Position numbers and translations under genes: made by a program
NCBI GenBank assembly: GCA_009711785.1
Contig: VENA01000016.1
Location: 217,647 to 281,646, forward strand
Direction of reading: 5' to 3'
DNA from: Bacillota bacterium
Lineage (GTDB): Bacteria; Bacillota; Clostridia; Tissierellales; MES13
Length of the DNA: 64,000 nt
Part shown: piece by piece, positions 4,056-5,462 of the stretch
Numbering within the stretch: the stretch's first letter is position 1
Layout of the letters: every line of letters begins with the position of its first letter
Notes under the pieces: model-generated
Told to the model about the DNA's origin: nothing
What the model saw: the letters and a program-made list of their open reading frames with translations, nothing else
The model's database searches: none

Positions 4056-4316
4056 TTAACAACAAGACTCACTTCCAGTGAGCCATCCCTTTATAATAGC
4101 ATAAGCTCATCCAACACCTGCACTTACCTTTATTGCTTCTTTAGGACAATTTTTACTACATGCCCCACATTCTATGCATTTATCCTTATAATTAATAAAA
4201 GCTTTACCTTCACTTATAGAAAATACCCCATGGGGACATACTTTAATACACATTTTACAACCTATACATTTATCTTTATCCATGGTTATATTTGCTATAT
4301 CTTTTATATATCTCAT
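4056..4316 (-). CDS. hgcB: HgcB-like 2x[4Fe-4S] ferredoxin (mercury methylation), with in-frame TGA at 4107-4109 read as selenocysteine (candidate)
   Basis: Track ORF 4107..4325 ends at a TGA. An AAGGAG SD sequence overlaps the hgcA stop codon, and the likely start is ATG at 4316. There are two ferredoxin motifs, CIGCKMCIKVCP and CIECGACSKNCP (the HgcB-type C(M/I)ECGAC). Reading through the TGA gives ...KVSAGVG-U-AYAIIKGWLTGSESCC followed by TAA at 4056-4058. That restores an HgcB-type tail ending in Cys-Cys. Confidence 0.8.
4066..4084 (-). promoter_or_regulatory. SECIS-like stem-loop downstream of the hgcB TGA
   Basis: Minus-strand RNA GGCUCACU-GGA-AGUGAGUC forms an 8-bp stem (one G-U pair) with a GGA apical loop. 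The stem starts 22 nt after the UGA and the loop lies about 31-33 nt after it. Confidence 0.5.
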
Positions 4317-4328
4317 TTTATTCACTCC

Positions 4329-5462
4329 TTAAAAAGCATTTAATATAATTAATATTATTCCACTTAGGACTAGTAAAAGTAATATAGGTATTGTAATTAT
4401 TGTTTCCCTTCTTACCCCAGAATGGGAGGTAAACGTAGTTGATCCTGTAAAATTCATTGCTAAATAAGCAATTATGGATATTAACAATAAAGAATTCCCA
4501 ATTATCCATAGAAAAGGTTTATCATATATTATAAGCCTATTATTAAATAATAAAACACTATAAATTATTCCTAATAATATACCATTAAATGAAAATATCC
4601 TAAATGGTAAAATTGGAATTAACATAGGAAACAATATAGTTCCTATAAAAATTGCCCCTATATAAGGTACTATATTTATTATACTATCCTTTAATCCATC
4701 TATTAAACTACTTCCTGATAATATATTTAAAAAAAGAAAAAATAATATAATAAAAGGAATATATTTAACTGAGTATACAAACTCTAACGGAGTGACTAAA
4801 AGTCTTTCTTTTAAGTTAAATGTAACTTTTCTCATATCTTTAGTCATTTTATTATTCAAAAATTTATTTATATCCCTTGCTTTAACAGGTCCATAATTTA
4901 TTTTAAAACCTACATATTTAGTTACTTTATACGAACTAACCCCTGGTGCAGAAAGCTGGGGTAATATTAAATTCTTATGGGTAACAAGTTTATCTATTTT
5001 ATGCTTTTTTATTCTATATATTAATTCCTCTGTTGAAAATGTCCCTTTTCCTGCAGCGCACCAAACATTAATTCCTTTAGTATCTAATACTAATATCCAA
5101 ACATCAAGTCTGTCTAAATTTTTTCTTAATTCATCAAAGGTTAACTTATAATTTGAAGTCACTAAAACTTGAGATTTTTCATTTGGATTACCTACTGCAT
5201 AAATTCCAGGTTGTATTTTATAATTATTTCTATTAACTCCTAATCTAACAGCTGCATTTAATAATTTGTCTTTTAAGCTAATAAAAGTTTTTATTCGTTT
5301 TATTAAACCTTTTTTTGTATTTAAATGTCCATCAAAGGAATGTTTAATCCATTTATTATCTATAACTTCATCTTTTTGAGTTATTTTATTTTTTAGTTTA
5401 ACCTCTAAACTAGAGGTATCTTTTTTACTAGTTCAACATGATTTATTAGATTTATCTGTCAT
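4329..5462 (-). CDS. hgcA: HgcA-like corrinoid protein (mercury methylation): N-terminal corrinoid-binding domain plus 5-TM C-terminal domain, with in-frame TGA at 5433-5435 (codon 10, candidate selenocysteine)
   Basis: It carries the cap-helix signature GINVWCAAGKGTFSTEEL and about 5 C-terminal TM helices. The track ORF starts at GTG 5162, but the frame stays open upstream to the TGA. That stretch encodes family-conserved sequence (W..H..G...T..G......YKIQPGIYAVGNPNEKSQVLVTSNYKLTFDELR). There is no in-frame ATG, GTG or TTG between 5432 and 5163. The only canonical start is ATG 5462, preceded by SD GAAGGTGA: MTDKSNKSC-U-TSKKD... Confidence 0.85.
5394..5417 (-). promoter_or_regulatory. SECIS-like stem-loop(s) downstream of the hgcA TGA
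   Basis: Two alternative minus-strand hairpins. One is ACCUCUA-GUU-UAGAGGU (5417-5401). The other is UAGUUUA-GAGGU-UAAACUA (5412-5394). The stems are 7 bp, the apical loops contain G/GGU, and the loops lie 23-32 nt after the UGA. The stems are AU-rich, so stability is uncertain. Confidence 0.4.

Follow-up and report, generated by a model that had tools for sequence, protein, structure and literature searches.

A two-gene hgcAB operon with a predicted selenocysteine codon in each gene in an AT-rich Clostridia-like bacterium

The 64-kb stretch of contig VENA01000016.1 analysed here (positions 217,647 to 281,646 of the forward strand; hereafter the window, with coordinates counted from its first letter) carries a two-gene hgcAB operon of an AT-rich Clostridia-like bacterium, and we consider it highly probable (roughly 90%) that both products, HgcA and HgcB, are selenoproteins. 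Each gene is interrupted by one in-frame UGA codon (TGA in the DNA), each UGA falls on a position that is cysteine in homologues, and each is followed by a hairpin resembling a selenocysteine insertion sequence (SECIS) element. To our knowledge, no genetic marker other than hgcAB is known for the microbial production of methylmercury, a neurotoxin, and environmental surveys rely on recognising it.

Results

Standard gene calling truncates both hgcA and hgcB

Listing the open reading frames (ORFs) of the window under the standard bacterial code yields, on the minus strand, a 277-aa ORF (GTG 5162 to TAA 4329) followed by a 72-aa ferredoxin ORF (GTG 4325 to TGA 4107). An earlier note, made from the sequence and such a listing, had taken these two ORFs for the called parts of a complete hgcAB pair truncated in both genes, with 100 additional in-frame codons upstream in hgcA and 16 additional codons downstream in hgcB. 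The listing reproduces both ORFs, and both extensions are present. The hgcA frame is open for 100 codons upstream of GTG 5162, back to ATG 5462, which is preceded at a distance of 4 nt by a strong, near-consensus Shine-Dalgarno (SD) sequence (GAAGGTGA, 5467..5474, minus strand). The hgcA coding sequence (4329..5462, minus strand; stop TAA 4331-4329) has 377 codons, including one predicted selenocysteine (Sec) codon. The upstream extension is interrupted only once, by a TGA at codon 10, so that the N-terminus reads M-T-D-K-S-N-K-S-C-[TGA]-T-S-K-K-D. The 90 codons between this TGA and GTG 5162 contain no stop and no ATG, GTG or TTG; we estimate the chance of such a stretch in sequence of 28% GC at ~4e-4, which argues that it is coding and translated from upstream.

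The hgcB frame runs for 16 codons past its TGA (A-G-V-G-[TGA]-A-Y-A-I-I-K-G-W-L-T-G-S-E-S-C-C-TAA) and ends in Cys-Cys, as the earlier note had said. The coding sequence (4056..4316, minus strand; stop TAA 4058-4056) has 86 codons, again including one predicted Sec codon. GTG 4325 was rejected as its start, since it lies inside the hgcB SD sequence and homologues, which begin M-[RKE]-Y-[IL]-K, align from ATG 4316. Both extensions cross an in-frame TGA, a point absent from the earlier note: the truncated calls are not a start-codon or frame problem, but reflect one Sec UGA codon per gene.

The read-through products are HgcA and HgcB

By its equivalog scores and motifs the locus is a genuine, complete hgcAB pair. 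Profile searches, which the earlier note had proposed as a check, place both read-through products in their families: against the NCBIfam equivalog model NF040863, HgcA scores 391.8 bits (cutoff 275; residues 54-376), and against NF040864, HgcB scores 118.3 bits (cutoff 99). The 72-aa HgcB cut at the TGA reaches 97.6 bits and misses that cutoff, the 17 post-UGA residues adding 20.7 bits. The note had named placement with non-methylating paralogues, or loss of the cap-helix motif, as outcomes that would count against it. HgcA stays under the cutoffs of the HgcAB-like fusion model (NF043039; 199 bits, cutoff 285) and of the model for the gamma subunit of the corrinoid iron-sulfur protein (CFeSP; 78 bits, cutoff 306), and the motif is intact. 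The only Pfam match of HgcA is the generic CdhD (residues 82-199); HgcB matches Fer4.

Translation and profile matches divide hgcA (4329..5462, minus strand) into an N-terminal extension, a corrinoid-binding domain and a five-transmembrane (TM) domain. The cap-helix N-V-W-C-A-A-G-K occupies residues 132-139 (5046..5069, minus strand, from the translation); W134 and C135 are invariant in a 24-sequence HgcA alignment, and Cys135 is predicted to bind the corrinoid cobalt as its lower axial ligand, by analogy with Cys93 of the protein from Desulfovibrio desulfuricans ND132. A Kyte-Doolittle scan finds five hydrophobic helices in the C-terminal membrane domain (4332..4790, minus strand), approximately at residues 233-253, 264-285, 290-310, 318-338 and 355-376, all between residues 225 and 377, in agreement with the note's count of about five TM helices. 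HgcB carries the two ferredoxin motifs that the note had described, CIGCKMCIKVCP and CIECGACSKNCP; in the translation these CX2CX2CX3CP [4Fe-4S] motifs lie at 4268-4233 and 4178-4143 (minus strand). It ends in Cys85-Cys86 (tail GSESCC; 4064-4059, minus strand, from the translation). Both the residue equivalent to Cys73 of ND132 HgcB (the UGA, residue 70) and the Cys-Cys end can only be made if the UGA is read through.

Among solved structures, the nearest to HgcA are CFeSP large subunits (E ~1e-10), which cover residues 81-205 only; the search matched these corrinoid domains and no HgcA structure. The best database match of HgcA outside its own source, on a metagenome contig, is 56% identical, and among GTDB species representatives identity does not exceed 46%, which points to a poorly sampled lineage. 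From family membership it is reasonable to predict that this bacterium methylates mercury.

Both UGA codons occupy cysteine positions shared with distant relatives

The hgcA TGA (codon 10; 5433..5435, minus strand) directly follows a TGT (Cys9), so that read-through with Sec would create a Cys-Sec (CU) motif. In the 24-sequence alignment it aligns with the second Cys of a CC or CCC in uninterrupted homologues that have cysteine here (Cys-type). Cys-TGA occurs at the same site in nine of the other loci compared (designated by L numbers): four metagenome contigs (L001-L004, of which L001 and L002 are identical in the TGA region), Anaeromonas frigoriresistens (L005), Oceanirhabdus seepicola (L070), a metagenome-assembled genome (MAG) of the Clostridia (L047) and two deltaproteobacterial MAGs (L066, L084). 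Relatives that share the TGA are only 43-56% identical in HgcA.

The hgcB TGA (codon 70; 4107..4109, minus strand) stands in the context GVG-U-A, at the site that corresponds to Cys73 of ND132 HgcB, an essential residue. In 78 other loci the same position is TGT or TGC, within the motif GVG-C-A; in L004, L005, L057 and L070 the GVG_ site likewise holds a TGA. Both subunits are of the Sec type in only two of the 80 GTDB loci compared (L005 and L070), which belong to the cultured strains A. frigoriresistens D2Q-11 and O. seepicola ZWT. Protein conservation continues on both sides of the UGA in both genes, and in HgcA residues 11-25 (SSLE..KLK.KI), past the TGA, are conserved with relatives.

Sequencing or assembly error was considered as a source of the TGAs and rejected, as contigs from 3-4 independent runs, including one of a divergent strain, keep both; these independent contigs all come from one marine-metagenome study. 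The hgcB TGA is kept in three independent assemblies. The divergent strain co-occurs with the strain of the window (it appears in two runs of the same study) and has a 3-nt in-frame deletion at the equivalent of window positions 5443-5445, between the start codon of hgcA and its Sec codon; it differs by many further hgcA substitutions, yet both TGAs are kept.

SECIS-like hairpins follow both UGA codons

Beginning 15 nt past the hgcA UGA, with its loop 22 nt downstream, is the hairpin ACCUCUA-GUU-UAGAGGU (5401..5417, minus strand); the 63-nt segment containing it has a minimum free energy of -7.5 kcal/mol (z = -2.8). In hgcB the hairpin GGCUCACU-GGA-AGUGAGUC (4066..4084, minus strand) begins 22 nt past the UGA and spans the codons for W-L-T-G-S-E-S. 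The SECIS form of Gram-positive bacteria has been described as a ~7-bp stem with a G-containing triloop (quoted in bioRxiv 10.1101/2022.07.06.499078). Both hairpins resemble this form in their stem of about 7 bp and G-containing triloop, and we regard them as putative SECIS elements, for which SelB binding is predicted.

The distribution of the hairpins follows the identity of the codon. Because the MAFFT alignment mis-registered the hgcA stems, hgcA hairpins were scored directly, counting stems of 6 bp or more closed by a G-containing triloop 17-28 nt after the codon. By this measure the hairpin is present in 9/9 Sec-type loci, compared with 1/46 Cys-type loci (Fisher p = 1.6e-9). All seven inner in-register pairs of the hgcB hairpin form in 5/5 Sec-type and 0/77 Cys-type loci; with at least six of the seven pairs accepted, the counts are 5/5 and 5/77 (p = 9e-6). 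In the ungapped alignment of the five hgcB sequences, 92.5% of the cells of the helix pair, against 30-50% in slid controls, and four of the eight helix pairs have changed on both sides. Scanning the whole window against Rfam at gathering thresholds gave no match, and thus no catalogued SECIS element, riboswitch or tRNA-Sec.

The five Cys-type hgcB genes that keep six of the seven pairs (L007, L008, L018, L026 and L041) have the form GGCUUAC..GUGAGCC, 22-45 nt past the Cys73 codon and over the codons of WLTGSEP. Their retention of these pairs indicates that this conserved peptide contributes to the hgcB hairpin. The remnant may be an effect of the conserved peptide, or else a fossil SECIS element left after replacement of Sec by Cys.

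Mis-annotated database entries and HgcB tails of relatives

Six database proteins (P0002, P0003, P0006, P0009, P0020 and P0036) read 'CW' at the hgcA Sec site, where the underlying DNA has TGA. The Trp is a gene-caller artefact that arises where short AT-rich contigs are called with a code in which UGA is Trp (code 4). The window's own HgcA entry, P0001, is a 351-aa model whose first Met is placed on an ATA codon downstream of the UGA (residue 26). The hgcB call of L085 is a truncated 69-aa form.

In L001-L003, whose Sec-type HgcA proteins are the nearest to that of the window (54-56% identity), HgcB has Cys at position 73 and a tail that ends FTRSKTSKTL/I without the C-terminal Cys-Cys (L001 4183-4449, L002 3106-3372, L003 7121-7387). 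The HgcB proteins of L004 and L070 likewise lack the pair. As mutagenesis implicates C94 and C95 in activity, such relatives may be altered or inactive as methylators.

Alternative explanations

Several points weigh against our reading of the locus as a selenoprotein-encoding, mercury-methylating pair. No selA, selB, selD or tRNA-Sec lies within the window, as judged by annotation of its 49 ORFs of at least 90 aa and by the Rfam scan; the sole selB match is a weak one, to the GTPase domain of an EF-G/Tet-like protein (44.9 bits, cutoff 242). The local HgcA motif is NKSC-U-TS and not the PCUGP pentapeptide that is invariant in the 20 first-described sequences. Part of the hgcB hairpin (6/7 pairs) is also found in five Cys-type genes. 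Sec insertion at both UGAs is predicted from sequence, and the formation of methylmercury from homology.

Were the two TGAs inactivating nonsense mutations, hgcAB would be a decaying pseudogene pair, and the interruption of both genes under the standard code would fit, as would the lack of Sec machinery within the 64-kb window. We hold this to be extremely improbable: each of the two stops is a TGA located precisely at a Cys-aligned column, neither gene has a further stop or frameshift, the sequence after each TGA is under protein constraint and a SECIS-like hairpin follows each. The presence of the same TGAs in relatives only 43-56% identical in HgcA effectively refutes it. A changed genetic code, in which UGA would specify Trp (code 4), Gly (code 25) or Cys, was rejected and has next to no chance of being correct. 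The 49 other genes of at least 90 aa in the window contain 116 TGG, 199 TGT/TGC and 1,134 GGN codons and not one in-frame TGA among 17,828 codons, which excludes a general reassignment, as an AT-rich genome with a sense UGA would use it often; the remaining in-frame TGAs found in the window lie either in frames that do not code or ahead of a start codon. The homologous residue, moreover, is always Cys and never Trp or Gly. The Trp residues of the six database proteins would favour such a code were they not TGA in the DNA; also in its favour, TGA terminates none of the 49 neighbouring genes, against 6/53 long ORFs in low-GC relatives.

It is also very unlikely that the UGAs are true stops, with HgcA started from a non-canonical codon downstream of a 9-codon mini-ORF and HgcB a functional 69-aa ferredoxin. 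The ATA start of P0001, the HgcA profile that begins only at residue 54 and the HgcB tails of L001-L003 without a CC pair are all compatible with it. However, no SD sequence precedes the ATA and a strong one precedes ATG 5462; residues 11-25 are conserved, and the Cys-TGA aligns with CC in uninterrupted homologues; the deletion in the variant strain, upstream of the TGA, is in-frame; and the 16-residue HgcB tail fits the family profile (+20.7 bits) and includes, with the UGA position, the Cys73 equivalent and the CC pair that are critical for activity according to mutagenesis cited in a 2024 biochemical study (PMC11588087). Finally, the locus might encode a non-methylating HgcA-like or CFeSP paralogue with another corrinoid-dependent role. 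CdhD is the only Pfam match of HgcA, its closest matches among solved structures are CFeSP large subunits, aligned over the corrinoid domain only, and methylation is predicted for the locus by homology. Given that the pair passes the equivalog models for HgcA and HgcB but neither the fusion-paralogue nor the CFeSP model, that the cap-helix Cys is present where the aligned CFeSP chain has Thr, and that a TM domain and an adjacent HgcB with the Sec/Cys73 position and CC tail accompany it, we find this highly improbable.

Stop-codon usage

The 49 window genes end in TAA (37), TAG (12) and TGA (0), and no plausible one among the smaller intergenic ORFs ends in TGA. In the loci of low-GC relatives TGA ends 6/36 to 6/53 long ORFs (11-17%); at a rate of ~11%, the chance of 0/49 is ~0.3%. 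UGA may be avoided as a stop in this Sec-using lineage, or release factor 2 may have been lost.

Locus boundaries and genomic context

The hgcB ATG lies 12 nt past the hgcA stop, and the two genes are translationally coupled, as the earlier note had proposed: the hgcB SD sequence AAGGAG (4325..4330, minus strand; 8 nt before ATG 4316) overlaps the hgcA TAA. Upstream of hgcA, a promoter scan finds a consensus match, the promoter-like TTTATA-17-TAAAAT with an extended TG (5521-5493, minus strand). The note had also placed terminators on either side of the two-gene unit, and both fold. Downstream is a bidirectional intrinsic terminator (3985..4031, on neither strand in particular) with a perfect 19-bp stem between an A-run and a T-run; the segment 3975-4040 folds at -23.2 kcal/mol, and the terminator sits between hgcB and a convergent EamA-family transporter gene (3017-3961). 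Upstream is an AT-rich terminator hairpin with a T-run (5549..5587 with its T-run, minus strand, and 5556-5587 in the fold; segment 5545-5595, -12.8 kcal/mol), located 3' of a 102-aa ORF (5903-5595) and separating that ORF from hgcAB.

The DNA of the window is ordinary chromosomal sequence from a spore-forming, AT-rich (28% GC) Firmicute in a marine metagenome. It encodes SOD, MsrA, DegV, an EamA transporter, an EF-G/Tet-like GTPase, ABC transporters, a phosphotransferase system (PTS) operon, Pfk and Pyk, as well as DnaE, WhiA, RapZ, a CofD-family (YvcK-like) protein, MurB, a GerM-like protein (Pfam Germane) and a ribonucleotide reductase large subunit with a TSCPD domain. Pyruvate kinase (38361-40130) and 6-phosphofructokinase (40133-41092) were assigned only by reading translations. 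Annotation of the 49 ORFs found no selenium, mercury-resistance, arsenic or Wood-Ljungdahl genes in the window.

Beyond the 102-aa ORF (5595-5903) upstream of hgcA is the gene for the EF-G/Tet(M)-like, ribosomal-protection-type GTPase (5927-7876, minus strand), which scores 455 bits on tet_protect (cutoff 775) and is therefore not callable as a tetracycline-resistance gene. Elsewhere on the minus strand are two tandem paralogous tRNA/rRNA (uracil-5)-methyltransferase genes (31978-33354 and 33431-34798) and a gene for a 353-aa protein (29285-30346) with a C-terminal double [4Fe-4S] domain (Fer4_16) in an architecture like that of epoxyqueuosine reductase or reductive dehalogenase. Four intergenic gaps of 545-716 nt (18570-19274, 25195-25739, 26961-27624 and 31262-31977) contain neither a convincing ORF nor an Rfam match at gathering thresholds.

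Discussion

Comparison with known HgcAB and related proteins

Sec-type HgcA and HgcB are already in the literature, and the locus adds a well-documented example and no new principle. The work of Haft and Gwadz also appeared in the Journal of Bacteriology in 2023 (205:e0025922). In their preprint, the majority of HgcA proteins contain Sec, in a CU motif within an N-terminal extension that had been overlooked; PCUGP is invariant in the 20 first-described examples, and in 17/266 HgcB proteins (6.4%) Sec takes the place of the ninth invariant Cys, residue 73 (bioRxiv 10.1101/2022.07.06.499078). A 2026 review lists HgcA (NF040863, CU) and HgcB (NF040864, GVGU) among prokaryotic selenoproteins. The present genes share with the Haft and Gwadz forms the UGA right after a Cys in the N-terminal extension of HgcA, the UGA at the ninth conserved Cys of HgcB, ~17-25 residues before the CC terminus, and the truncation of both genes by standard annotation. 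In place of PCUGP they have N-K-S-C-U-T-S, a form common to an AT-rich Clostridia clade (other HgcA contexts in the clade are SNNKSCUS, SNKKSCUV and LNKKACUA), and, unlike most of the HgcB proteins in that set, both subunits here are of the Sec type. The differences, in the motif and in the double Sec, are only a matter of degree.

The experimentally defined mercury methylation pairs are those of D. desulfuricans ND132 (DND132_1056/1057) and Geobacter sulfurreducens (GSU1440/1441). As in the present locus, these combine the cap-helix N(V/I)WCA(A/G)GK with its Co-ligating Cys and a 5-TM domain with an adjacent 2x[4Fe-4S] ferredoxin that has the conserved Cys73 position and a C-terminal CC. Our pair differs in being a distant Firmicute sequence, known from its genes alone, with a predicted Sec and not Cys at HgcB position 73. 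The large subunit of CFeSP from the Wood-Ljungdahl pathway (AcsC/CdhE; PDB 2h9a, 4c1n, 4djd) has a corrinoid-binding domain homologous to HgcA residues 81-205 but lacks the cap-helix Cys, the TM domain, Sec and an HgcB partner; the cap-helix segment of the aligned chain is SVLTAWAAGKF, with Thr where HgcA has Cys. The HgcAB-like fusion protein (NF043039) has homologous corrinoid and ferredoxin parts (199 and 59 bits), whereas the present genes are separate and coupled, and HgcA scores under the cutoff of 285 of that model.

A proposed route from UGA decoding to methylmercury

Ribosomes would start hgcA at ATG 5462 and read the UGA at codon 10 as Sec with the help of SelB and Sec-tRNA(Sec), which the hairpin 15 nt downstream would recruit, giving an N-terminal Cys9-Sec10 pair. 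Translation of hgcB would be coupled to termination on hgcA, and its codon-70 UGA would be decoded likewise through the hairpin 22 nt downstream, letting the last 16 residues, ending in Cys-Cys, be made. By analogy with the characterised systems, HgcA would be anchored by its five TM helices and hold the corrinoid, the cobalt being ligated by cap-helix Cys135, and the two [4Fe-4S] clusters of HgcB would reduce the cobalt to Co(I).

Methyl-tetrahydrofolate was the earlier proposed methyl donor. The 2024 biochemical study found S-adenosylmethionine (SAM) to be the donor and described a Co-S(Cys93) bond (PMC11588087); the same study cites mutagenesis by which C73, C94 and C95 of HgcB are critical. 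Here, too, the Co(I) would be methylated, with SAM as the donor according to that study, and the methyl group then passed to Hg(II). The latter is probably held and delivered by the Sec70/Cys85-Cys86 cluster of HgcB and possibly also by the Cys9-Sec10 pair of HgcA. Replacing sulfur with selenium at two of the presumed Hg-handling sites would bring tighter Hg(II) binding and greater nucleophilicity.

A bolder extension, which we consider unlikely, is that the lineage has given up UGA as a stop and reserved it for Sec, and that the double-Sec HgcAB forms a selenium-based Hg(II) relay made up of the Cys-Sec of HgcA and the Sec70 and CC of HgcB. If this were true, mercury methylation by these marine Clostridia would depend on selenium supply.

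Implications

What is new here is the lineage: a poorly sampled, AT-rich, marine Clostridia-like group with predicted Sec in both subunits. Selenium at two presumed Hg-handling sites is relevant to the long-discussed antagonism between mercury and selenium, an idea that has already been published. The practical value of the locus is as a warning about the mis-annotation of Sec-type hgcAB in metagenomes. An HgcB cut at the UGA drops under the curated cutoff (97.6 against 99 bits), a mis-called HgcA loses its Cys-Sec N-terminus or gains an artificial ATA start, and some entries carry a spurious Trp. Surveys of marine metagenomes could thus under-count or mis-describe methylators of the Sec type.

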